Shown: piece by piece, positions 3,604-63,873 of the stretch
How positions within the stretch are numbered: the first letter of the stretch is position 1
Layout of the letters: each line of letters starts with the position of its first letter
NCBI GenBank assembly: GCA_045654905.1
Contig: JAZOOH010000024.1
Coordinates: 557-64,556 of the forward strand
Source: Acutalibacteraceae bacterium
GTDB taxonomy: Bacteria; Bacillota; Clostridia; Oscillospirales; Acutalibacteraceae
Reading direction: 5' to 3'
DNA: 64,000 bases
Program-made: the position numbers and the translations under genes
Notes under the pieces: generated by a model
What the model was told of the DNA's origin: nothing
Databases searched by the model: none
What the model saw: the letters and a program-made list of their open reading frames with translations, nothing else

Positions 3604-4677
3604 ATGGCAATGGGTAAACCAAACAAATGGAAAACAGATAACTTCTTAAGAGGCGAAAAGGAGCCTTTAAAATTCTCCGAGGACGGAAAATTCAGAATTT
3701 TACACCTTACGGATATACACGAGGTTATGCCTGAAATGGATGATGACGATAACCGTGAAATCCCTGAAAGCAGAGACAAGGAAACGCTTAACGTTATTGA
3801 AAAATGTCTTGAGGAAGCAAAGCCCGATTTAGTTGTTTTCGGCGGTGACAACGTAAGCGGCTACTGGGAAGAATTCAACTACGATTTAATTCACAAAACC
3901 ATTACCAAAATCGTAGAGCCTATAAAAAGAAGAAATATTCCTCTTGCTCTTGTTTTCGGTAACCATGACGGTGAGGTTGGTTTTTATACCGATATTCAAA
4001 TGATTATGTACAGCGACTACGACAATTGCCGCTCCACACTTAATGATGCAGACGTTTTCGGTTGCGGTAACTGCAATTTAACCATTAAAAGCTCCGACGG
4101 AAAAAGAAACGCTTTTTCCATTTGGCTTATGGACTCAAACGATTATATGACTCTGCCTGACGGTGACTCCGGCTACGCTTACGTTCACGACGACCAAATT
4201 GCATGGTACGAAAAAAGAAGCGCCGAATTAACGGCAGAAAACGGAGGCAAGCCGGTTCCTGCAATTCTCTTCCAGCACATTCCCGTGCAGCAGGAAATTT
4301 TTGAGCTGCAGGAGGTTACAAAAGCCGGTGAAAACGTTGTTGAAAAGGATGGCAAATACTACTCCTTCGGCAGCAAATTAATCTCAGGCAGATTAAGAGA
4401 ATACCCCTGCCCGCCTTATATGAAAAAGGATTTTACAAACCAACTGAAAAGCTGGAAAAAAATGGGTGACGTAAAGGCTGCCTTTTTCGGTCACGACCAC
4501 GTAAACGATTTCCATATTAAGGTTGACGGTATAAGTCTTTACCAGACAATCGGATGCGGCTATTTTACATACGGAAAAGAGCGCGGCGGCAGACTTATAA
4601 TTCTTGATGAAAACAATCCCGAAAGCATTGAAACAAAAACCATAGAGGTAGAAAGAATTACAGAAACGGAGATTTAA
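3604..4677 (+). CDS. Calcineurin-like metallophosphoesterase
   Basis: Motifs LHLTDIHE, GGDN, GNHD and GHDH appear in the canonical order. Confidence 0.8.
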   Translation: MAMGKPNKWKTDNFLRGEKEPLKFSEDGKFRILHLTDIHEVMPEMDDDDNREIPESRDKETLNVIEKCLEEAKPDLVVFGGDNVSGYWEEFNYDLIHKTITKIVEPIKRRNIPLALVFGNHDGEVGFYTDIQMIMYSDYDNCRSTLNDADVFGCGNCNLTIKSSDGKRNAFSIWLMDSNDYMTLPDGDSGYAYVHDDQIAWYEKRSAELTAENGGKPVPAILFQHIPVQQEIFELQEVTKAGENVVEKDGKYYSFGSKLISGRLREYPCPPYMKKDFTNQLKSWKKMGDVKAAFFGHDHVNDFHIKVDGISLYQTIGCGYFTYGKERGGRLIILDENNPESIETKTIEVERITETEI

Positions 4678-4681
4678 TTTT

Positions 4682-5410
4682 ATGACGGAAAATAAAGACG
4701 TGGCTATCATTTTAAACAAATATGATGAGCTTTTAGATAAAAAACTCCTTGAAGAAGCAGGCGCTTTTTTAGAGGATGAAATAAAAAAAGCAAAGGAGCT
4801 TGGCGACTCCTTTACGGAAATGACGCTTCATAACGAGGTTGTTTCCTACCACAGAAGAACGGGTGAGCAGGCAAGGGCTGTTGCCGCTATTAACGAGATT
4901 CTTGAGCTTATACAAAAATTCGAGCTTTCAAGTACCGTGCTCGGCGCAAATATGTACTTAAACTGTGCTACAACACTCAACTTTTTCAAAAGAACAGCAG
5001 ACTCTCTTCCTCTTTTTGAAAGAGCGTTTGAAGCGTATATAAATACAATTCCTGAAAACGATTACCGCTTTGCAGGCTTTTACAACAACTATGCGCTTGC
5101 CTTGTACGACACAGAAAATTACACTGAAGCGTTAAGATATTTCAGGAAGGCGTTAAATATACTTTCTCTTTACAAGGGCAACGACTCAGAAATGGCTGTT
5201 ACCTTCTGCAACCTTGCACACCTTTTTGAAAAAACAAATGACACAGAAATGCTCGAAAGCTGTATAAATTCTGCTTTTTATTCCTTAAAGGATTACGACG
5301 GTGAAAGAGATAATAATTTCAACTTACATTGCGAAAAATGTCTTGAAGCCTTCAGATATTTCAAAAAGCAGGATTACGCTAAGGAAATTGAAGAGCTTTT
5401 GAAAAAATAA
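4682..5410 (+). CDS. TPR-like repeat protein
   Basis: All-helical 242 aa with repeated A..Y.N.A..Y......A...F.KAL patterns. It is tightly packed after the preceding gene. Confidence 0.55.
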   Translation: MTENKDVAIILNKYDELLDKKLLEEAGAFLEDEIKKAKELGDSFTEMTLHNEVVSYHRRTGEQARAVAAINEILELIQKFELSSTVLGANMYLNCATTLNFFKRTADSLPLFERAFEAYINTIPENDYRFAGFYNNYALALYDTENYTEALRYFRKALNILSLYKGNDSEMAVTFCNLAHLFEKTNDTEMLESCINSAFYSLKDYDGERDNNFNLHCEKCLEAFRYFKKQDYAKEIEELLKK

Positions 5411-5424
5411 TATATAGTATTATA

Positions 5425-5453
5425 TTGACATTAAAATGCTTTTTGGCTAAAAT
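5425..5453 (+). promoter_or_regulatory. Sigma-A type promoter for the nadD operon
   Basis: TTGACA (5425-5430), a 17-nt spacer, then TAAAAT (5448-5453), about 28 nt upstream of the nadD ATG. Confidence 0.5.
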
Positions 5454-5480
5454 TATTTAATAAACAAAACGAGTGATAGT

Positions 5481-6083
5481 ATGGGAAACATTGCAATTTA
5501 CGGCGGCTCCTTTGACCCGCCACACAAAGGCCACGCGCTTTTAGCGGAAAATTTAGCAAAAGAAATTAACGCCGACAAGGTGATTATTATTCCTGCCTAC
5601 TCTTCCCCTTTTAAAGAGGGAACTATTGCAAACGGGCCGGACAGACTTGCTATGTGCCGTTACACCTTTACCTCGCCCGTTTTTGAAATATCATCAATAG
5701 AAATTAACCGCGAGGGCAAAAGCTACACGGTTGACACCTTAAAGGATATTAAAAAATACTACCCTAATGACAAGCTGTTTTTGTTTATGGGTGACGATAT
5801 GTTTCTTTCACTGGGCAACTGGTACAAATACAAGGAGCTGCTTTCCTTCTGCACAATAGTTACCGCTGCAAGAACTGAGGATTTAAGGCACCTGAGTCAA
5901 ATGAAGGCTTACGCCATAACCACTCTCGGCTTAAATGAAGGAGATTATATAATATCTCAGGAAAAGCCTATTGAGGTGAGCTCCACGCTTTTAAGAACTA
6001 TGCTGAAAAATAGGTTGGATACAAGTAAATACCTTACCTATGACGTTATAAAATACATCAACAAAAGGGGGCTTTATTTATGA
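5481..6083 (+). CDS. nadD: Nicotinate-nucleotide adenylyltransferase
   Basis: YGGSFDPPHKGH nucleotidyltransferase motif, 200 aa, and conserved nadD-yqeK-rsfS context. Confidence 0.9.
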   Translation: MGNIAIYGGSFDPPHKGHALLAENLAKEINADKVIIIPAYSSPFKEGTIANGPDRLAMCRYTFTSPVFEISSIEINREGKSYTVDTLKDIKKYYPNDKLFLFMGDDMFLSLGNWYKYKELLSFCTIVTAARTEDLRHLSQMKAYAITTLGLNEGDYIISQEKPIEVSSTLLRTMLKNRLDTSKYLTYDVIKYINKRGLYL

Positions 6084-6673
6084 AAACCGATTCCGAATGC
6101 ATTGAAATCATAAAGAGCAGACTTAAAGAGCAGCGCTTTATACATTCATTAAACGTTGCAGACTGTGCAAGGGAGCTTGCGTTAAAATACGGTGCAGACC
6201 CCGACAAGGCGTACACCGCAGGCATTCTTCACGACTCCTGCAAAAACCTGGAGCCCTCGGTACAATTGCAATATCTGCTTGAAAACAACGTTACACTTTC
6301 TGAATATGAGTTAGCAGCACCCAAGCTTTTCCACGCAATTTGCGGCAGGACTTTTGCCGAAAAAGAAATTGGCTGTGATGATGAAGAAATTTTAAACGCT
6401 ATTCGCTACCACACCACAGGACGAAGCAATATGACTCTTTTAGAAAAAATTGTTTTTATTGCCGATTTCATTGGCAAGGAGCGTAATTACGACGGTGTAG
6501 AAATTATGCGCGAAAAGGCATTCCGCTCACTTGATGAAGCAATAGTCGAGGGTCTGAGCTTTACTATAATAGATTTAATAAAGCATGAGCGCTTAGTTCA
6601 CCCCGACACCATGGGAGCATATAACGCTGCACTTGTTAATATGAAAAACGAAAATGGGGAGAAGTTAATATGA
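6080..6673 (+). CDS. yqeK: HD-domain bis(5'-nucleosyl)-tetraphosphatase, YqeK family
   Basis: HS..V...A..LA, GILHD and RYHT motifs. It overlaps the nadD stop by 4 nt. Confidence 0.85.
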   Translation: MKTDSECIEIIKSRLKEQRFIHSLNVADCARELALKYGADPDKAYTAGILHDSCKNLEPSVQLQYLLENNVTLSEYELAAPKLFHAICGRTFAEKEIGCDDEEILNAIRYHTTGRSNMTLLEKIVFIADFIGKERNYDGVEIMREKAFRSLDEAIVEGLSFTIIDLIKHERLVHPDTMGAYNAALVNMKNENGEKLI

Positions 6674-7017
6674 GCTTAGATTTAACTAAAAAAATCGTTA
6701 AGACACTTGACGATAAATTAGCAAGAGATATAGAGGTTATCAAAACAGAAGAGGTTACCATTGTTGCCGATTATTTTATTATTGCAACTGCTAACTCTAA
6801 CACACACGTAAAAGCACTCGCGGACGAGGTTGAATACCGCCTTGAGCAGGAAAACATTCACCCCGACCACGTAGAAGGTAGAGCAACAGGCTGGGTGCTT
6901 ATGCAGTACGGCGGTGTTGTTGTGCATATATTCCTTGAGGATTCAAGACAGTACTACAACCTTGAAAGACTTTGGGATGATGCAGCTAAATTAGACGTTT
7001 CTCAATTTATTGATTGA
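6670..7017 (+). CDS. rsfS: Ribosome silencing factor
   Basis: 115 aa containing DYFIIATANSNTHVKALADEV and GWVLMQYGGVVVHIF, typical of RsfS/IojAP. Confidence 0.9.
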   Translation: MSLDLTKKIVKTLDDKLARDIEVIKTEEVTIVADYFIIATANSNTHVKALADEVEYRLEQENIHPDHVEGRATGWVLMQYGGVVVHIFLEDSRQYYNLERLWDDAAKLDVSQFID

Positions 7018-7048
7018 TAGACTTGTACAACGAAAGGAAATGATAAAA

Positions 7049-9454
7049 ATGAAGTACGATTTTTCCGCTATTGAGCAAAAATGGCAGAAAAAATGGGAAG
7101 AGGCTGGGGTTTTCCACGCAGAGGACGGAAGCAGTAAGCCTAAGTTTTATGCTCTTGTAGAGTTCCCTTACCCAAGCGGCGCAGGTATGCACGTTGGCCA
7201 CATTAAAGCATATTCCGGTCTTGAGGTTGTTTCAAGAAAAAGAAGAATGCAGGGCTACAACGTTTTATTCCCTATTGGCTTTGACGCTTATGGTCTCCCT
7301 ACTGAAAACTATGCTATTAAAACCGGTATCCACCCAAGAAAGGTTACCGATATGAACATAGAAAAATTCTCAAGCCAGTTAAAAAGAGTAGGCTTCTCCT
7401 TCGACTGGAACAGAGTTGTTGATACCACTCAGGAGGACTACTACAAGTGGACTCAGTGGATATTCCTTAAAATGTTTGAAAAGGGTCTTGTTTTCCGTGA
7501 CAAAACTCTTGTTAACTACTGCCCTTCCTGTAAGGTTGTTCTTTCAAACGAGGACTCCCAGGGCGGTAAGTGTGACATTTGCCACAGCGACATTATTCAA
7601 AAATCAAAGGACGTGTGGTACTTAAGAATTACCGAATATGCAGACAAGCTTTTAGAGGGTCTTGACGGTGTAGATTACCTTCCTAACATTAAGCTTCAGC
7701 AGGTTAACTGGATTGGTAAATCCACAGGTGCTTTCGTTAACTTCTCAATTAAGGATACAGATGAAAAATTAGAAATTTACACAACCCGTCCGGATACACT
7801 TTTCGGTGTTACATTTATGGTTATGGCACCGGAGCATCCGCTTATTGACAAGTATGCTGAAAAAATCGGCAATATGGATGAGGTTATTGCTTACAGAGCA
7901 GAGTGTGCAAAGAAAACCGAATTTGAAAGAACTCAGCTTGTTAAAGATAAAACCGGCGTACGCCTTTCAGGCTTTTCTGCAATTAACCCTGTTAATAATA
8001 AAGAGATTCCTATTTACATATCCGACTACGTTATGATGGGCTACGGTACAGGCGCTATTATGGCAGTACCCGCACACGACGAGCGCGACTACGACTTTGC
8101 TAAAAAATTCGGCATAGATATTATTGAGGTTATTAAGGGCGGCAACATAGCAGAAGCTGCTTACACCGGCGACGGTGATATGGTTAACTCCGACTTCCTT
8201 AACGGCTTCACAAACAAAAAGGACTCCATAGCAAAAATGCTTGAGTTCTTAGAGGCTAAGGGAATAGGCAAAAAGGGTGTTCAGTACAAAATGAAGGACT
8301 GGGCATTCAACAGACAGCGCTACTGGGGTGAGCCGATTCCGATTGTTCACTGTGAAAAATGCGGTATTGTTCCCGTTCCTTACGAGGAGCTTCCGTTAAG
8401 ATTACCTGAAATTGACAACTTCCAGCCGGGCTCTGACGGTGAAAGCCCGCTTGCAGAAATTGAAGAATACGTAAATTGCAATTGTCCTAAGTGCGGCGGT
8501 AAAGCAAAACGCGAAACCGACACAATGCCACAGTGGGCAGGCTCTTCATGGTATTTCTTAAGATACATTGACCCTAAAAACACCGAGGCACTTGCAAGTG
8601 AAGAAAAGCTTAAATACTGGGGTCAGGTTGACTGGTACAACGGCGGTATGGAGCACGTTACCCGTCACTTAATCTACTCTCGTTTCTGGCACAAATTCCT
8701 TTATGATTTAGGCGTTGTTCCGACAGCAGAGCCTTACGCAAAGAGAACAGCTCAAGGTCTTATTTTAGGCCCTGACGGTGAAAAAATGAGTAAGTCTAAG
8801 GGTAACGTTGTTGACCCTAACGAGGTTGTTGACCAATTCGGTGCAGACGTGCTTCGTTCTTACGTACTCTTTATGGGTGACTACGAAAAGGCTGCTCCTT
8901 GGTCTGAAACAAGCGTTAAGGGCTGTAAGCGTTTTGTAGACAGAATCTGGAATCTTCAGGAAATTGTTGCGGACGGCGACGACTATTCAAAGGAATTAGA
9001 GGTATCCTTCCACAAGACAATTAAAAAGGTTTCTGACGATATTGAAAACATGAAGTACAACACCGCAATTGCTTCACTTATGTCTCTTCTTAACGAAATT
9101 TACGACAAGGGCTCCATTACAAAGGGTGAGTTAAGGACCTTCCTTATTTTAGTAAACCCATTTGTGCCTCACGTTTCCGAAGAGCTTTGGGAGGTTATGG
9201 GCTTCGGCGGAATGTTAGCTGTTACTCCTTGGGTTTCTTATGACGAGGCAAAAACAGTTGACTCTACCATTGAGGTGCCTGTACAAATTTGCGGTAAGCT
9301 CCGTGCAACAGTTACAATTGCAAAGGATGCTGACTCTGCAACAGCTATTGCAGCTGCTAAGGCAGACGAAAAGGTTCAGGAAATGTTAGACGGAAAGCAA
9401 ATTATTAAAGAAATCTACGTTCCGGGCAAAATTATAAATATTGTTGCGAAATAA
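7049..9454 (+). CDS. leuS: Leucine--tRNA ligase
   Basis: Class I motifs PYPSGAGMHVGH (HIGH) and KMSKSKGN (KMSKS), plus the Zn-finger CP1 region. I favour the start at MKYDFSAIEQKW (ATG 7049, AAAGGAAA upstream); the track start at 7010 overlaps rsfS. Confidence 0.95.
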   Translation: MKYDFSAIEQKWQKKWEEAGVFHAEDGSSKPKFYALVEFPYPSGAGMHVGHIKAYSGLEVVSRKRRMQGYNVLFPIGFDAYGLPTENYAIKTGIHPRKVTDMNIEKFSSQLKRVGFSFDWNRVVDTTQEDYYKWTQWIFLKMFEKGLVFRDKTLVNYCPSCKVVLSNEDSQGGKCDICHSDIIQKSKDVWYLRITEYADKLLEGLDGVDYLPNIKLQQVNWIGKSTGAFVNFSIKDTDEKLEIYTTRPDTLFGVTFMVMAPEHPLIDKYAEKIGNMDEVIAYRAECAKKTEFERTQLVKDKTGVRLSGFSAINPVNNKEIPIYISDYVMMGYGTGAIMAVPAHDERDYDFAKKFGIDIIEVIKGGNIAEAAYTGDGDMVNSDFLNGFTNKKDSIAKMLEFLEAKGIGKKGVQYKMKDWAFNRQRYWGEPIPIVHCEKCGIVPVPYEELPLRLPEIDNFQPGSDGESPLAEIEEYVNCNCPKCGGKAKRETDTMPQWAGSSWYFLRYIDPKNTEALASEEKLKYWGQVDWYNGGMEHVTRHLIYSRFWHKFLYDLGVVPTAEPYAKRTAQGLILGPDGEKMSKSKGNVVDPNEVVDQFGADVLRSYVLFMGDYEKAAPWSETSVKGCKRFVDRIWNLQEIVADGDDYSKELEVSFHKTIKKVSDDIENMKYNTAIASLMSLLNEIYDKGSITKGELRTFLILVNPFVPHVSEELWEVMGFGGMLAVTPWVSYDEAKTVDSTIEVPVQICGKLRATVTIAKDADSATAIAAAKADEKVQEMLDGKQIIKEIYVPGKIINIVAK

Positions 9455-10953: not shown

Positions 10954-11150
10954 TTGTAATTAGTCGAAACGCAGTTGCGTTTCGTAAAAGCCGATTTTAT
11001 CGGCTTTTAGCAAAATTGTTTTTCGAAAACACAATTTTGCATTACAGTCATTGAAAGGATTATAGTCGAATTTTCGAAGAAAATTCGATACCAAATATAA
11101 GATTTGGTATCGAAACAGTGTAAAATTACACTGTTTCGACTAACTATAAT
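10954..11150. repeat. Intergenic multi-hairpin repeat, copy 2 (extended chain of six palindromes)
   Basis: 10954-11085 aligns with 2177-2308. It continues with TCGAATTTTC-GAA-GAAAATTCGA, TACCAAAT..ATTTGGTA and TCGAAACAGTGTAA..TTACACTGTTTCGA. Confidence 0.7.
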
Positions 11151-11198
11151 CGTTATAACATAAAACCTAAAAATAATCTATCAAAAAAATGTTAAAAT

Positions 11199-11837
11199 TT
11201 AGATGTCAAGCTCGCTGTAATTATAAATATATTGGTCCACAAGATTTTTGAGCGCTTCAGCCTCAGGCTCGCTTTTATCATAAATTCCAACAACGTTATA
11301 GCCGTGTGCCTTTGCTGTTTTTGCAGCATATAAGGCATCCTCAAAAACCCACGTGGTAGCTTTATCTGTACCAAGGCACTCAAGCACGGTATTGTAAACG
11401 GTAGGCTCTGTTTTAGAGGCTCCCACGGTATAGGTTGAATAAATACACGAAAAATAGTCGAGCATATTATATTTTTCAAGCACAGCCTCAAGCGCTTTTT
11501 CACTTGTTGCTGTTGCAATGCCCATTTTAACGCCCTTGGCCTTAAGCTTTTCCAAAAACTCTATTATATCGTTCTTAGGCTCGGTTTCCGTTAAATATCT
11601 TCCCTTTATAAGCTCAAAAAATGACTTAAAAAGCTCGTCATCCGTCATTTTTATTTCAAACCTTTTCTTTGCGAGTTCAATTGCGTCTAAAAGAAAAAGC
11701 CCTGCAAAATCCTCTTTATCCTTTTCGGAAAGCACCAAACCGATTTTGTCGAAAAATTTAAATTTTACACCCTTCCAAATATGCATGGAATCAAAAACAG
11801 TTCCGTCAAAATCAAAAATTGCACCTGTAATTTCCAT
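11199..11837 (-). CDS. HAD-superfamily hydrolase (beta-phosphoglucomutase-like subfamily IA)
   Basis: FDFDGTVFDS motif I, ATATS motif II region and a C-terminal FEDA-type motif. Confidence 0.85.
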   Translation of the reverse strand: MEITGAIFDFDGTVFDSMHIWKGVKFKFFDKIGLVLSEKDKEDFAGLFLLDAIELAKKRFEIKMTDDELFKSFFELIKGRYLTETEPKNDIIEFLEKLKAKGVKMGIATATSEKALEAVLEKYNMLDYFSCIYSTYTVGASKTEPTVYNTVLECLGTDKATTWVFEDALYAAKTAKAHGYNVVGIYDKSEPEAEALKNLVDQYIYNYSELDI

Positions 11838-12895: not shown

Positions 12896-13109
12896 TTCAA
12901 TGAAATCGCGCAAGCGCGATGATATCCTCACTCCATTCGGATGAAATCTGCTAACGCAGATGAAATCAAATCATTCCTTCACCTGACGAAGTAGGATTTC
13001 ATCACGGAGTGATTTCATCCACCGCAGGTGGATTTATCCCGTCCGCAAGGACGGATTTAGTTGAAAAGAAACACCTTTTGCCAGATAGGCAAAATGTGTT
13101 TCTTTTCTG
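12896..13109. repeat. Hairpin-array repeat R1 (214 bp) ending in a terminator hairpin
   Basis: Collinear with 13734-13947. It is a chain of short GC-rich palindromes joined by TGAAATC / GATTTCA linkers, then AGAAACAC..GTGTTTCT followed by TTTTC. Confidence 0.75.
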
Positions 13110-13946: not shown

Positions 13947-14033
13947 TGGTGCCGGTGGTGGGACTCGAACCCACACGATGTCGCCATCAACGGATTTTGA
14001 GTCCGTCACGTCTGCCAATTCCATCACACCGGC
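13947..14033 (-). tRNA. tRNA-Leu (anticodon CAA)
   Basis: The reverse complement gives GCCGGTG acceptor, an ACGGA-CTCAAAA-TCCGT anticodon arm, a long variable arm, a GGTTCGAGTCC T-arm, CACCGGC-A and an encoded CCA. Confidence 0.9.
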
Positions 14034-60582: not shown

Positions 60583-60611
60583 TTGACAACAGTAGCATTA
60601 TTCGTTATAAT
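60583..60611 (+). promoter_or_regulatory. Sigma-A type promoter of tRNA-Pro
   Basis: TTGACA (60583-60588), a 17-nt spacer, then TATAAT (60606-60611), 28 nt upstream of the tRNA. Confidence 0.55.
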
Positions 60612-60639: not shown

Positions 60640-60715
60640 CGGGGTGTAGCGCAGTTGGTAGCGCGTCTGGTTTGGGACCAGAATGTCGGGAGTTCGAGTC
60701 TCTTCACTCCGACCA
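60640..60715 (+). tRNA. tRNA-Pro (anticodon UGG)
   Basis: CGGGGTG acceptor, GCGC-AGTTGGTA-GCGC D-arm, TCTGG-TTTGGGA-CCAGA anticodon arm, GGGAG-TTCGAGT-CTCTT T-arm, CACTCCG-A and an encoded CCA. Confidence 0.9.
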
Positions 60716-60758
60716 AATACAAGGAATAACCTTTTGGTTGTTCCTTGTATTTTTTTGT
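60713..60758 (+). repeat. Left copy of a perfect 46-bp direct repeat (tRNA CCA end plus its terminator hairpin)
   Basis: CCAAATACAAGGAATAACCTTTTGGTTGTTCCTTGTATTTTTTTGT is identical to 62805-62850. It contains the tRNA terminator (ACAAGGAATAACC/GGTTGTTCCTTGT plus T-run). Confidence 0.85.
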
Positions 60759-60774
60759 GTTGAATTAACTTTAA

Positions 60775-60970
60775 TTCCCGATATTCTGTCACAACCAGGC
60801 GCCCGTCTGGTTTGGGCTATGAGCACGACCGCCGCCTGTGGCGGATGAAGGGAGTGCTTATAGGCGTAGGGGTCAAAATTGTGCGATGCGAATAGCGAGC
60901 TTACAATTTTGGGCACCGCAAGAGGCACGCAGTGAGAATATCGGGAGTTCGAGTCTCTTCACTCCGACCA
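60775..60970 (+). other. Module B: tRNA-Pro-derived structured segment
   Basis: 60804-60816 equals tRNA positions about 25-37 (CGTCTGGTTTGGG). 60935-60970 equals tRNA positions about 41-76 with one mismatch. 118 nt of unrelated hairpin-rich sequence lies between them. CCCGATATTCT (60777-60787) pairs with AGAATATCGGG (60935-60945). Its own terminator hairpin follows at 60972-61012. Confidence 0.5.
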
Positions 60971-61026
60971 TAAAAACAGTGATACCTTTAGGTATTGCTG
61001 TTTTTATTTTTGTATTGAAAAGTTTC

Positions 61027-61129
61027 GGGAAGAGACTCGAACGACCCTCGGCGAAGCCGAACACAATTGGGTTTTCGCGCAGCGAATCGTAGGGCGTAGC
61101 CCTGCGAGTCTCTTCACTCCGACCAAATA
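61027..61129 (+). other. Module C: cloverleaf-like segment ending in a 25-nt copy of the tRNA-Pro 3' end
   Basis: GAAGAGACTCG pairs with CGAGTCTCTTC and encloses three hairpins. The segment ends in CGAGTCTCTTCACTCCGACCAAATA and is followed by a terminator hairpin (61131-61167). Confidence 0.5.
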
Positions 61130-61222
61130 AGCACGATGGTTTTGATACGAAACCATCGTGCTTTTTCTTTTCCTAAAGAGCCTTGTAGCAAAAGGCTTTT
61201 CGATGCTTTGGTGCAGTAGACT

Positions 61223-61380
61223 AGTTTCACTGTATCAAAATTAACTGCACAAGAGTTGAAGTTGGAGGAATTGAACTTACACGTTTTTCAAGTACTTAAA
61301 ACCACAATGAAACTTTTATTTTGGATTAGTTTCATTGTGATTGAATAAGTTTCATCGTGTCATACAAAAGTTTCAGTGTG
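61223..61380 (+). repeat. Array of AGTTTCA-YYGTG motifs upstream of the MerR-like gene
   Basis: Direct copies start at 61223, 61328, 61348 and 61369 (the last three spaced 20-21 bp). One inverted TGAAAC lies at 61308. Confidence 0.7.
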
Positions 61381-61447
61381 GTGTTCAGCTTTTACAATGC
61401 GTTTCTTGATATATTCGCGAAAATATGCAATAATATGTAAAATAGTA

Positions 61448-61478
61448 TTGACTTTTACCTTGCGTAAAAAGTTATAAT
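61448..61478 (+). promoter_or_regulatory. MerR-type promoter: 19-bp spacer containing a dyad
   Basis: TTGACT (61448-61453), a 19-nt spacer, then TATAAT (61473-61478). The dyad ACTTTTAC-CTTGC-GTAAAAAGT fills the spacer. Confidence 0.55.
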
Positions 61479-61502
61479 CCTCTTATAAATGGAGGTGTTT
61501 AT

Positions 61503-62693
61503 ATGAAAATCAAAACTGCATGCGAGTTGACTGAGCTAACTGACCGCACAATTCGATATTACATTGAGGAGCAACTTATATCTCCTTCATACACAGAAAA
61601 CTACTTGGGAAGGAAATCATTCGATTTTTCCAAATCCGATATACAGCAATTGCAAGATATTGCTATTCTTCGCAAGTTTGGTTTTTCTATTGCCGAGATC
61701 AAAGAAATGCTTTCAGTACCTTCTCAAATCATCCCAATTGCAAAAGAATTACAACAAAGAAAACAGAACACCATTAATGAAGAAAACTCGCTTCTACAGG
61801 CATTGCTGAGGTTGGACGAAAACCAGTCCTACACCATCACCGAACTGGCAGCTCAATTATCTGCCCCCGTTGTGAATGAGCCTTTGCCTTCCGAAGATTA
61901 CACTAAAAATATTGTAAAAGTGATTTTGTATTTCTTCAAATCCTTATTGTTGGGTGTCGTCACATGGCTCCCTTTGGTTCTTTCGCTCCTTGCAGCAATC
62001 ATCAGTATCCATTCTGACGCATATCCGGTATTCAACCCAAAAGCATTCGTAGTTGTCCTCTTCGCACTCTCTCCCACTTTATTGATGGTTCTTTTACCTA
62101 AAGATAAGGTTAGGTTTCCATGGCTGCCCATTGCAAGAAAAGTCCTTATTGTCCTTTGCATCCTTAGCATTCCGATTAGTTTTATCTCTTCCAGTAGTAT
62201 CAGCTCACGCTCTGAAACATCGGACATTCGCAATTACCGTCGTTTTGATACTGATTGTCTTGCCAACAGGTCTTCCTTTTTTCAGGAACTGTTTCCAATT
62301 TGGCCGCACTATTTTACAAATGAGAAACAGCCAGATGGTAGTTGGGAGACCGTATATTTAGATGCCCATTATTACTACCGTAATCTTCCGGCAATGGATT
62401 ACACCTATGACATATATGCCGAATGGCCCTTAGAAAAGGACGAATTTGATAAAGAAGTTGCCCGTGTACAAGCATTGTACGAAAGTCAGTCAAGTGACTA
62501 TGTTACCGTGCAAAAGGGAGACTATACCTGTTTCTTTTTGTATGATGGCAACCCGCCCTTTGAAGAAGTAACGGACAGTTACACCTATTTCATTTTTGCC
62601 TTTGATGAACAAAATTTGATCGTCCGATATATAATATGTGATAGTCTTGAAAACGGTGTAGATCAGCCATATTATTTGTCGTTAGATTGGTGA
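61503..62693 (+). CDS. MerR-family HTH protein fused to a multi-TM region and a C-terminal domain of about 160 aa
   Basis: The N-terminus ACELTELTDRTIRYYIEEQLISP..FSKSDIQQLQDIAILRKFGFSIAEIKEML is a MerR HTH. Three hydrophobic helices follow at about aa 135-230. GGAGGTG RBS. Confidence 0.75.
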   Translation: MKIKTACELTELTDRTIRYYIEEQLISPSYTENYLGRKSFDFSKSDIQQLQDIAILRKFGFSIAEIKEMLSVPSQIIPIAKELQQRKQNTINEENSLLQALLRLDENQSYTITELAAQLSAPVVNEPLPSEDYTKNIVKVILYFFKSLLLGVVTWLPLVLSLLAAIISIHSDAYPVFNPKAFVVVLFALSPTLLMVLLPKDKVRFPWLPIARKVLIVLCILSIPISFISSSSISSRSETSDIRNYRRFDTDCLANRSSFFQELFPIWPHYFTNEKQPDGSWETVYLDAHYYYRNLPAMDYTYDIYAEWPLEKDEFDKEVARVQALYESQSSDYVTVQKGDYTCFFLYDGNPPFEEVTDSYTYFIFAFDEQNLIVRYIICDSLENGVDQPYYLSLDW

Positions 62694-62703
62694 TTTTTAG
62701 CAA

Positions 62704-62783
62704 GGTTTCATTTATGCGTGAAGGTTTCACTTTCTGGCGGATGGTTTCATTTCAAGTGAAACCTGTTGAAACCATATGAAACG
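62704..62783 (+). repeat. Array of GGTTTCA (three direct) and TGAAACC/G (three inverted) motifs downstream of the MerR-like gene
   Basis: Direct copies at 62704, 62723 and 62743 (19-20 bp spacing). Inverted copies at 62757, 62767 and 62777 (10 bp spacing). Confidence 0.7.
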
Positions 62784-62804
62784 TATCAATATTATAAGCC
62801 TTTG

Positions 62805-62850
62805 CCAAATACAAGGAATAACCTTTTGGTTGTTCCTTGTATTTTTTTGT
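62805..62850 (+). repeat. Right copy of the perfect 46-bp direct repeat
   Basis: Identical to 60713-60758 but not preceded by a tRNA body. Confidence 0.85.
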
Positions 62851-62861
62851 ACTAAAAAATT

Positions 62862-62951
62862 GGGAAAGAGACTCGAACGACTCTCGCCGAAGGCGAACAC
62901 AATCGAATTTATTCGTGGGGCACCGCCCCACGAGTCTCTTCACTCCGACCA
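62862..62951 (+). other. Module D: homolog of module C ending in a copy of the tRNA-Pro 3' end
   Basis: Collinear with module C. AGAGACTCG pairs with CGAGTCTCT, and the internal hairpins are conserved through compensatory changes. It ends in CGAGTCTCTTCACTCCGACCA and is followed by a terminator hairpin (62957-62992). Confidence 0.5.
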
Positions 62952-63193
62952 TAAACAAACGAAGCTATGATACAATTTCATAGCTTCGTTTCCTTTTCTT
63001 TTATTAGGTTGCAAAATACCTTTATATATGTTAATATTTCTATAGAATTGCAGAGGAAGAGGTGTAATAATTGTGGAGAACATCAAGCAAGCTTGTATTG
63101 ATCAGCTGTTGTACAAGTAGTCTTTTTTAACCGATTACATTTAATTGGTTACTCGCACTAGGCGGACATTACATTGGTGTAGTTGCAGATGTT

Positions 63194-63388
63194 ATGTATG
63201 ATTCGAAACTAAAAAAATATAAGATGGAGTATTGGGTGATTGCGATTGATAGATATAATTTTGACGATAACGGTAAAACATTTTTTGGTATAAAAGATGA
63301 ATACAATGGTCGTTTTGTTGCTTTGGGATGGGCAAAATTCTTCACCTCAACAGGTCTAATGGGAGGGACAAAAACTTGGCGAAAATGA
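63194..63388 (+). CDS. Small hypothetical protein (possibly a fragment)
   Basis: 64-aa ORF in a visibly AT-rich segment. The frame is open upstream to 63131 without a start codon. Its stop overlaps the next ATG (ATGA). Confidence 0.3.
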   Translation: MYDSKLKKYKMEYWVIAIDRYNFDDNGKTFFGIKDEYNGRFVALGWAKFFTSTGLMGGTKTWRK

Positions 63389-63873
63389 AAAATAAAACCA
63401 GAGTTTTAAAATTGTTAATTGCTATGATTGTTGTTTTTTCTATTGTATTTCACTTGTTAAGAATAACATATGGTACAATTAATGAATATATATCTGATTT
63501 AAATATTGTTTACACACCTTCATCTCCTGCACGAACATATCGTTATTCAAATATATCTATAGATATATTTGAATATTGGGTTTTCAAGTTAAGTGATTTA
63601 GAAGAAAAAACAGTTTTAAATGATATAGAAAATGGAAAATGGGATGAATTAGATTCTAATCATATAGCGAAGCTTGACGCATTTGATTATTATAATAAAA
63701 TTTTAGGGAAGAATTACAAAAAAAATGATTGTTATATTTGTATCTACGACTGTAAAAATGATATCATAATAACAGATAGTGAAAATATGATATATGAAGA
63801 TACAACAAAGTGGATAATCTTTTTGTATGATACAGAAACAAAAAAATATTATTGTATTCATGAAACTGTATAG
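63385..63873 (+). CDS. Hypothetical protein with an N-terminal TM helix
   Basis: MKNKTRVLKLLIAMIVVFSIVFHLL, then a soluble domain of about 130 aa. It is translationally coupled to the preceding ORF. No motif was recognised. Confidence 0.45.
   Translation: MKNKTRVLKLLIAMIVVFSIVFHLLRITYGTINEYISDLNIVYTPSSPARTYRYSNISIDIFEYWVFKLSDLEEKTVLNDIENGKWDELDSNHIAKLDAFDYYNKILGKNYKKNDCYICIYDCKNDIIITDSENMIYEDTTKWIIFLYDTETKKYYCIHETV

Follow-up and report, generated by a model that had tools for sequence, protein, structure and literature searches.

A recombinase-less single-gene cassette at a tRNA-Pro(UGG) locus belongs to a gut-Clostridia family inserting at CCA ends

We analyzed a 64,000-nucleotide stretch of contig JAZOOH010000024.1 from an Acutalibacteraceae bacterium (assembly GCA_045654905.1), hereafter the window, in which a perfect 46-bp direct repeat begins at the 3' end of a tRNA-Pro(UGG) gene. 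An earlier reading, made from the sequence only, had taken this repeat for the attachment-site (att) footprint of a single integrated element of 2,046 bp. We find that the mobile unit is a cassette of 1,680 bp (61126-62805), which lies between two CA dinucleotides and carries one gene, coding for a MerR-like protein. The cassette belongs to a widespread family of recombinase-less cassettes of gut Clostridia that insert at CCA ends, and the second copy of the 46-mer is target DNA pushed downstream by the cassette insertion. As a whole, the locus is probably an integration hot spot built up in layers at the 3' end of tRNA-Pro(UGG), with the single-gene cassette as its second layer.

Boundaries of the cassette and of its family

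The cassette and its junctions comprise the following features.

61124 to 61125, forward strand: left junction dinucleotide CA (of CCA); CA stands 5' of the left end in 38 of 38 related loci
61126 to 61168, forward strand: cassette left end, with the spacer AATAAG, the hairpin CACGATGGTTTTGATACGAAACCATCGTG (T3) and a T-run
61169 to 61447, forward strand: extended left arm, which holds a second hairpin and GTTTCA/TGAAAC repeats at five places (61224, 61308 in reverse orientation, 61329, 61349 and 61370)
61448 to 61478, forward strand: promoter of MerR type that serves the cargo gene (TTGACT and TATAAT, separated by 19 bp that hold the dyad CTTTTAC/GTAAAAG)
61503 to 62693, forward strand: cargo gene for a MerR-like membrane protein of 396 amino acids (Pfam MerR_1)
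62696 to 62805, forward strand: cassette right end, with three direct GGTTTCA (20-bp spacing), three inverted TGAAAC (10-bp spacing), GTATCA (62783-62788) and 17 further nucleotides (N17)
62806 to 62807, forward strand: right junction dinucleotide CA, which closes every right end seen, whatever comes next

The boundaries come from related loci that were retrieved for comparison with the window and are labelled Lnnn. Three near-identical copies of the cassette were recovered (L001, L004 and L007), two of which (L001 and L004) are 97.2% identical to the window at the DNA level over about 1.7 kb (about 61105-62809) and have unrelated flanks. On the left, the cassette follows a tmRNA-like 3' end in L001, a tRNA-Pro(CGG) 3' fragment in L004, where it stands at the far end of a tyrosine-integrase island, and the tRNA-derived module C in the window. 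On the right, CCA is followed by a different terminator in each of L001, L004 and L007 and by T1, the terminator of tRNA-Pro(UGG), in the window, which makes four in all. Since the same cassette ends are found at these three sites with differing flanks, the unit spans 61126-62805. The search for further copies of the segment that the sequence-only reading had called for was thus fruitful for the cassette, which recurs at three other sites, but not for the rest, as modules B and C and T1 are lacking there. Nor is the 46-mer an att footprint, as that reading had it, because the cassette junctions share only CA or CCA with the target and the three copies carry three other terminators. Cassette DNA had no match in cultured-phage and plasmid collections.

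Both ends extend far beyond this one cassette. The T3 hairpin (61132-61160), a predicted terminator in which TGATAC (61143-61148) stands 17 nt from CA, is exactly conserved in 38 other loci from public collections (3 viral and 35 metagenome), nearly always 6 nt (WATNAG) 3' of a CCA. In 18 loci this CCA closes a complete gene, namely tRNA-Pro (CGG, UGG or GGG), tRNA-Ser(GCU), tRNA-Leu (UAG or GAG), tRNA-Ala(CGC) or tmRNA. The other left neighbours are tRNA 3' fragments beside a tyrosine integrase (L004, L010, L021, L044 and L045), the 3' end of a large-serine-recombinase gene (L015, L020, L025 and L042) or the right end of another cassette. Judging from its sequence, the left end would act as a replacement terminator for the tRNA-like end upstream of it. 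Cassettes with other cargo (L010, L013-15, L019, L022, L025 and L029) share the extended left arm at 75-80% conservation, and the right end (about 90 bp) is 83-85% identical in cassettes with unrelated cargo (L012, L017, L027, L034, L040 and L043). The right arms of the family follow the consensus ACCGTATCAtTATTATCAA...CA, preceded by phased TGAAACC/GGTTTCA repeats. Within the 64 kb, CA-N17-TGATAC occurs at one site only, the left end of the cassette, and GTATCA-N17-CA likewise at one, the right end. The six GGTTTCA/TGAAAC copies of the right end span 62705-62777, and 12 of the 47 GTTTCA/TGAAAC hexamers of the window fall within the 1.68-kb cassette. These arrays belong to the cassette backbone and are not an operator of the MerR gene; array-bearing left arms also flank other cargo.

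Cassettes mapped at both ends measure 0.65-1.7 kb and carry a single gene between a left end of about 45 bp and a right end of about 100 bp. The cargo of the sister cassettes includes two GNAT acetyltransferases, a S-adenosylmethionine (SAM) methyltransferase, a T5orf172 protein, an ADP-ribosyltransferase, a zeta/CPT-like kinase, a SAP-domain protein, a DUF6076 protein and small membrane proteins. Cassettes also stack in tandem: three stand in a row in L039, and one array of two follows tmRNA in L041 and the end of a recombinase gene in L042. We found no remnants of transfer or integration genes, and the uniformity of these mini-cassettes, together with their diverse cargo, argues for a dedicated design and not for decay of integrative and conjugative elements (ICEs) or integrative and mobilizable elements (IMEs). 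As in a non-autonomous element, the ends are of att type, integration and transfer genes are lacking, and presence is polymorphic: the cassette is missing from the syntenic site of L046, L047 and L049.

Site-specific mobility could be dispensed with altogether if homologous recombination, gene conversion or local duplication among tRNA-Pro 3' ends had shaped the locus and the MerR gene had arrived by ordinary horizontal transfer. The modules clearly do recombine, as the relatives below show for module D, and repeats of 21-64 bp could support unequal exchange, which may explain the older layer. This account is nevertheless highly improbable for the cassette, as it explains neither why identical cassette ends are joined, exactly at CA, to over 20 tRNA, tmRNA or element ends that are unrelated to each other nor why these ends are shared around unrelated cargo.

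The direct repeat and the older layer of the locus

The cassette splits a longer series of tRNA-Pro-derived features, arranged as follows.

60640 to 60715, forward strand: tRNA-Pro(UGG) gene with encoded CCA (ARAGORN; Rfam tRNA, 65.6 bits), the anchor of the integration hot spot
60713 to 60758, forward strand: first copy of the 46-mer, the CCA of tRNA-Pro and terminator T1 (exact match)
60776 to 60971, forward strand: module B, an anticodon-arm fragment of tRNA-Pro, an insert of about 120 nt and the last 37 nt of tRNA-Pro
60972 to 61013, forward strand: T2, a terminator-like hairpin 3' of the CCA of module B, containing TGATAC
61027 to 61125, forward strand: module C, a closing stem GAAGAGACTCG/CGAGTCTCTTC around two to three hairpins, ending in the last 21 nt of tRNA-Pro (61105-61125)
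62805 to 62850, forward strand: second copy of the 46-mer, the displaced CCA and T1 of the cassette's target (exact match; no tRNA body precedes it)
62861 to 62995, forward strand: module D with terminator T4, a paralogue of C that ends in the 3' 21 nt of tRNA-Pro and CCA

The tRNA-Pro(UGG) gene has a strong promoter (TTGACA-17-TATAAT, 60583-60611) and lies downstream of the core genes ddl, DUF1934 and argS. Its 3' end is followed by T1, a predicted hairpin of the intrinsic-terminator type (60715-60752) that is also found 3' of tRNA-Pro in the relatives L047 and L049; together with the first copy of the 46-mer, this 3' end is an intact, unoccupied target site. The 46-mer (CCAAATACAAGGAATAACCTTTTGGTTGTTCCTTGTATTTTTTTGT) has exactly two copies in the window, and no further copy was found there at up to 3 mismatches, with 0 expected by chance. 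Several points of the sequence-only reading are borne out by these searches. The 46-mer is the tRNA CCA end plus its terminator in two identical copies, no tRNA body precedes the second, the tRNA-derived modules and the ordered repeat (GTTTCA) arrays are real, and the Pfam and open reading frame (ORF) check leaves one credible gene between the copies, the MerR-like gene at 61503-62693. It was also right about recombinases, as tblastn searches that used large serine recombinases and one tyrosine integrase of related loci gave no match in the bracketed segment or in the whole window. Its proposal of a recent, non-autonomous, recombinase-less element at the tRNA 3' end holds for the cassette, but not for the enclosed 2,046 bp, which are a composite of 345 bp of modules and the 1.68-kb cassette.

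The composite becomes apparent when the cassette is removed in silico. Deletion of 61126-62807 yields a perfect repeat of 64 bp, consisting of the last 21 nt of tRNA-Pro and T1: 61105-61125 joined to 62808-62850 is identical to 60695-60758 at 64 of 64 positions. The length of the repeat had thus been missed earlier, as it is 64 bp once the nested insertion is taken out, and the two copies then flank 345 bp with module B, T2 and the 5' part of module C. This perfect repeat implies that two copies of the 21 nt and T1 predate the arrival of the cassette. According to the layered reading, the first layer would be the 345 bp of tRNA-Pro-derived modules (B, T2 and C) between two perfect 64-bp copies. 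The 1,680-bp cassette would then have inserted at the CA of the distal CCA, splitting the distal copy, whose 46-bp remainder (CCA and T1) would be the right-hand repeat seen now. In the restored empty site, the sequence would read module C...GACCA-AATACAAGG (T1).

Relatives at the same tRNA-Pro locus show the older layer without the cassette. In L047, which is fully syntenic with the window and whose neighbouring protein is 89% identical, the order is tRNA-Pro with T1, module C with another terminator (T5), module D with T4 and the same two small ORFs; module B, the cassette and a second T1 are lacking at the syntenic place. Farther on, L047 carries a tRNA-Pro 3' fragment that starts in the anticodon loop, a diverged copy of T1, with 3 differences, and a module that is a C/D hybrid, and the spacer after this T1 is the same as that after the second T1 of the window. 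Relative to L047, module D of the window is itself a C/D' - D hybrid, so that modules recombine with each other. In L049, which comes from another species with an identical tRNA, module B is fused to the interior of module C, followed by a gene-less unit and then by D. Other terminators follow module C in both relatives, and no cassette is present. As the duplicated T1 is found in L047 in a diverged form, the 46-mer repeat belongs to the older layer: the duplicated T1 is a recurrent feature of this hot spot and not a signature of the cassette.

These relatives also bear on the possibility that the whole 2,092-bp period, with modules B and C and the MerR gene, is one element that integrated through a 46-bp identity between the attachment sites of element and target (attP and attB) and that is now non-autonomous or deleted. 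Such a model would account for the perfect 46-bp direct repeat and for the lack of a recombinase inside; moreover, tRNA 3' ends are classical att sites, and in L047, too, two T1 copies flank inserted DNA. It is nonetheless very unlikely and largely refuted by the MerR unit alone, which recurs with the same ends at three other sites where B, C and T1 are all lacking (L001, L004 and L007). Conversely, C and D occur without the MerR unit in L047 and L049, and the true repeat after cassette removal measures 64 bp and flanks just 345 bp. The empty site that this model predicts, with T1 followed directly by module D, was not seen in the relatives, and L047 has C and T5 between the two. As for the cassette, direct empty-site alleles were sought with the right-flank terminators of L001, L004, L007 and others in all related loci collected, and none was found.

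Another kind of insertion occupies the same place in further relatives. In L046, L048 and L050-53, paired tyrosine recombinases and an HTH_17 (excisionase (Xis)-like) protein directly follow the CCA of tRNA-Pro. Up to 60715, L046 and the window are 100% identical; past that point they are unrelated, and the differences among these tRNA-Pro-locus genomes all begin exactly after ...CCA. The paired-tyrosine-recombinase island, which is not in the window, spans 4346-6829 in L046 and 7195-10003 in L048 and is also seen in L050-L053.

Two minor observations concern these relatives. Most of the gene-less unit of L049 (7305-7545; about 190 bp between two terminators) is made up of AACTTCAYT repeats, akin to the GTTTCA arrays, and the unit may represent a cassette that is empty or has decayed. 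The two small ORFs shared with L047 downstream of D and T4 overlap in the window (64 and 181 amino acids, 63194-63873) and have no Pfam match; in L047 they sit in the segment that ends at the tRNA-Pro 3' fragment.

Structure of the tRNA-derived modules

Modules B, C and D each end in the last 21 nt of tRNA-Pro, CCA and a terminator, so that each recreates a target arm. The arm used by the cassette is the tRNA-Pro 3' 21 nt of module C. Module B is closed by an 11-bp stem (CCCGATATTCT/AGAATATCGGG), and its RNA has a predicted minimum free energy of -83.2 kcal/mol (z = -4.58 versus shuffled sequence). Its conservation in L049 is about 90%, and one hairpin there shows a compensatory change. Modules C and D share the same fold, and an alifold prediction with the copies of L047 and L049 shows compensatory GC<->CG and AU<->GC pairs as well as positions that tolerate G-U. 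All three look like conserved structured RNAs (60776-60971, 61027-61125 and 62861-62951 in the window), with copies at 11088-11332 and 12451-12550 in L047 and at 7046-7303 and 7571-7659 in L049. No Rfam family matched B, C, D or the hairpins in gathering-threshold and permissive scans. Among the related loci collected, the modules are confined to this tRNA-Pro locus, and their motifs have no match in viral contigs. We also considered module B as a mimic of the tRNA top half, with GGGAGTG pairing with the acceptor 3' strand, and rejected this idea, as the minimum-free-energy fold puts GGGAGTG in another hairpin. The modules might be extra landing pads that recreate the target arm and terminator, a new class of tRNA-derived structured RNA, or what is left of the ends of decayed elements.

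The hairpins that follow these CCA ends have a motif in common. T2, T4 (62952-62995) and T7 (L048 6997-7040) are unrelated to each other, and all contain TGATAC, at 9, 16 and 10 nt from CA, respectively. T7 is the left end of the paired-tyrosine-recombinase island and also contains GGTTTCA. These shared motifs hint at a functional kinship of the ends.

The helper recombinase

We lean slightly towards a large serine recombinase, acting in trans, as the enzyme that moves the cassette. It would be supplied by a co-resident prophage or island and would exchange strands at the CA of a 48-bp attP, GTATCA-N17-CA-N17-TGATAC, formed when the two ends join in a circle. For the window, the circle junction would read ...GTATCAATATTATAAGCCTTTGC-CA-AATAAGCACGATGG..., and its half-sites, one of each kind, lie at the two ends of the cassette (61124 and 62783). 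The same arrangement is found where a right end meets a left end in tandem, as 10 such junctions follow GTATC(A/C)-N17-CA-N17-TGATAC. In left-end hairpins with variant stems, TGATAC still stands 17 nt from CA, and GTATCA is retained at the right ends of large elements whose N17 differs (L008, L011, L037 and L039). The layout is that of an attP: a 48-bp imperfect dyad with a non-palindromic central dinucleotide and hexamers at half-site positions 19-24. In large serine integrases, the zinc-ribbon domain reads half-site positions 16-24 of an attP of about 50 bp, with the motif TTTAGTATC in the case of the LI integrase, and attB sites are shorter than attP (PMC3783163). No base pattern other than CA is common to all junctions, and some reconstructed attP/attB pairs (L043 and L027) share nothing else either; reshuffling of arrays could separate original junction pairs.

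Candidate enzymes are found next to the left end. Proteins with Resolvase, Recombinase and Zn_ribbon_recom domains are encoded immediately upstream of it in 7 loci. The prophage L008, which has tail and lysin genes, ends in three such recombinase genes, followed by GTATCA-N17-CA. In one family of phage recombinases, the ORF always ends in ...GCTCCACCA, followed by a terminator and, in L143, by a CA-N17-TGATAC hairpin. In addition, two loci show one left end on two different ...CCA ends: the same left-end hairpin, together with phage early genes, adjoins tmRNA (beside smpB) in L231 and, in L155, another prophage's ...CCTCCACCA end. We discarded this pair as a link from the left-end hairpin to a recombinase gene, as the left flank of L155 is the lysis end of the other prophage. 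A search of viral contigs with the loose pattern CTCCACCA-N17-TGATAC was discarded as well, since it returned mostly chance matches (hairpin in 3 of 120).

Large serine recombinase genes with the tmRNA-like end ...GCTCCACCA were seen in L015 (6809-8371), L025 (132-1604), L042 (1435-3003) and L135-L143. In several cases their stop codon comes from the left end of the neighbour (CCA-TAT-TAG or CCA-AAT-TAG), so that the C-terminus of the recombinase would depend on the DNA joined to the right end of the element. In the viral contig L143, an ORF resembling the type I restriction protein HsdR (4092-6719, reverse strand) lies directly downstream of the junction between recombinase end and left-end hairpin and may be defence cargo at such a junction.

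Several points weigh against a serine recombinase. The window itself contains no helper, as the tblastn searches found no recombinase there. Tyrosine-integrase islands adjoin cassettes about as often as serine recombinases do (L004, L006, L044, L045 and the tRNA-Pro relatives). Phased arrays beside the core site are classic attP arms of tyrosine integrases, and serine integrases need none. The strict attP x attB rules of serine integrases do not readily fit tandem junctions of right end, CA and left end. Finally, the right arm of the cassette resembles the arm of the phage with the recombinase trio and not that of the CCA-ending recombinase family. A motif analysis of attB was ambiguous and we do not rely on it: the GGTTC of tRNAs aligns with GTATC at zero shift and RANTCY does so at a 5-bp shift, and modules C and D and the recombinase gene ends lack both alignments.

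These points lead to the alternative of a heterobivalent tyrosine integrase acting in trans, for which the GGTTTCA arrays would be arm-type or Xis sites and the overlap would be short and lie around CCA. The paired tyrosine recombinases with HTH_17 that follow the same tRNA-Pro CCA in relatives are a candidate. Phased direct and inverted repeat arrays do flank the junction, the left hairpin T7 of the paired-recombinase island carries both TGATAC and GGTTTCA, and the attP and attB of the window would share 7 bp (CCAAATA). Islands with tyrosine integrases also abut cassettes or the same CCA in L004, L006, L044-L046, L048 and L050-53. We still regard this alternative as unlikely. The conserved inverted hexamers stand 17 bp on each side of CA, too far apart for the core of a tyrosine recombinase, and class-2 cassettes have no left-arm arrays. 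Some junction pairs, moreover, share CA only (L043 and L027), although reshuffling of tandem arrays could blur this overlap test.

The cargo protein

The cargo protein carries the Pfam domain MerR_1 at its N-terminus (1.4e-13). In an AlphaFold2 (AF2) model with a mean predicted local distance difference test (pLDDT) score of 88, residues 1-120 form a MerR helix-turn-helix (HTH) and a coiled coil, residues 137-231 three to four transmembrane helices, and residues 234-396 an alpha/beta domain with no assigned function. Its PDB matches are MerR regulators only, both by sequence and by fold (CadR and CueR by fold). The protein has the HTH and dimerization helix of MerR-family regulators, and its gene has a TTGACT-19-TATAAT promoter with a dyad operator. 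MerR promoters typically have a 19-bp spacer with a dyad, and a promoter of this type is conserved 5' of homologues outside cassettes (L002, L003 and L006). Most likely, the model and the promoter taken together, the cargo is a self-regulated, membrane-bound sensor-regulator.

As the sole protein of the unit, with a DNA-binding domain and repeats flanking its gene, the MerR-like protein might be thought to catalyze insertion itself, binding the GTTTCA arrays through an HTH like those of IS607-type serine transposases or excisionases. We give this idea of an autonomous cassette almost no weight. Pfam, PDB sequence and fold searches found no Resolvase, nuclease or other catalytic domain, and the serine-recombinase catalytic domain that follows the HTH in IS607-type transposases is lacking. 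The three to four transmembrane helices also speak against it, as do the sister cassettes, in which the same ends surround GNAT, methyltransferase, toxin-like and other genes. Conversely, homologues at 79-85% identity are found in ordinary contexts without cassette ends.

At least 741 homologues of the cargo were found, and their sources name Clostridia. Exact-protein look-ups found neither the cargo MerR protein nor its neighbour on record, and a scan of genome contigs with the MerR protein returned 4 loci only. Most homologues lie on contigs of 1.2-2.5 kb, which is consistent with assembly breaks at polymorphic or repeated cassette ends.

Comparison with known systems

We found no published description of CCA-end cassettes in open-access text. 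The closest concepts are cis-mobilizable elements (CIMEs), pseudo-SCC cassettes (of the staphylococcal cassette chromosome, SCC) and, by analogy, integron cassettes, none of which fits fully. CIMEs accrete in tandem at the 3' ends of tRNA or other genes, as in the ICESt1/ICESt3 family (reviewed in PMC5704250). Like the cassettes, they are recombinase-less, keep attL and attR, and lie beside other elements, functional or decayed, in tandem arrays at the target gene's 3' end, where newcomers integrate in the att site that retains the gene end (PMC5704250). They are, however, decayed ICEs or IMEs of several kb that rely on tyrosine integrases and have repeats of tens of bp (PMC5704250). The cassettes, in contrast, are uniform (0.65-1.7 kb) and hold one gene; their dedicated ends are conserved and include a terminator, their junction is 2 bp, and they use many different tRNAs as targets.

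The SCC and pseudo-SCC islands at rlmH (orfX) are moved by the large serine recombinases CcrAB and CcrC. They, too, form arrays at the 3' end of a housekeeping gene, and some members have no recombinase and rely on a large serine recombinase in trans. They differ in measuring 3-60 kb and in having the single target rlmH and repeats of about 15 bp, whereas the cassettes hold single genes and join many tRNAs and tmRNA exactly at CCA. With integron cassettes, ours share the small size, the mostly single gene, the lack of their own recombinase, the arrays, a hairpin-forming end and accessory cargo such as acetyltransferases, toxins and methyltransferases. Integrons depend on IntI, a tyrosine recombinase, on a fixed attI platform and on a folded, single-stranded attC that closes the 3' end of promoterless cassettes. 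The cassettes described here have instead their own promoter, a 5' terminator-like hairpin with a T-run and a site geometry like that of serine recombinases, and neither a tyrosine recombinase nor a platform was found in the window.

The site geometry resembles that of A118/LI, Bxb1 and phiC31, with an imperfect dyad of about 48 bp, a non-palindromic central dinucleotide and a distal motif at about 16-24, and the cassette motif contains GTATC, as does the LI zinc-ribbon motif (PMC3783163). Known large serine integrases, however, have a single attB, are encoded in the element and lack flanking repeat arrays, and the tandem attP-like junctions would not be expected of them. Williams reportedly defined, in 2002, sublocation classes of tRNA- and tmRNA-targeting islands, and phage mv4 is said to integrate at a tRNA-Ser 3' end. 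Like tyrosine-integrase islands of this kind, which occur at this very locus in relatives, the cassette targets a 3' end and keeps the gene intact. Such islands come with their own integrase and a duplicated stretch of the tRNA that ranges from 7 to more than 45 bp, whereas the cassette duplicates CA or CCA only and encodes none; the segment lacks an integrase, and its direct repeats are not the core of a jointly moving unit.

Implications and other features of the window

It is possible, and we propose it only tentatively, that gut Clostridia harbour an undescribed, integron-like system of CCA-end cassettes, with hundreds of self-promoted single-gene cassettes shuttled by large serine recombinases. 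In such a system, recombinases encoded by phages or islands may act in trans on the CA of essentially any tRNA or tmRNA CCA end, and the cassettes may stack in arrays and hitch-hike with prophages. If this is true, tRNA and tmRNA 3' ends in abundant gut Firmicutes would be docking rails for tiny recombinase-less cassettes and would offer a cheap route of gene flow for regulators, acetyltransferases, methyltransferases and toxin-like or kinase-like genes. Finders of mobile elements that are centred on genes would miss these cassettes, because they carry no recombinase and leave a footprint of 2 bp only, and the orphan contigs of 1-2 kb with such genes in metagenomes would be explained. It would also suggest serine recombinases that target a generic tRNA end rather than one sequence, which is of interest for recombinase engineering. 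More generally, perfect direct repeats beside a tRNA need not be an att core, as they can also stem from displaced target DNA.

Elsewhere in the window, an Rfam match to the Gut-1 RNA (12991-13063, reverse strand; 56.1 bits, above the gathering threshold) lies about 900 bp from a tRNA-Leu(CAA) gene at 13947-14033.

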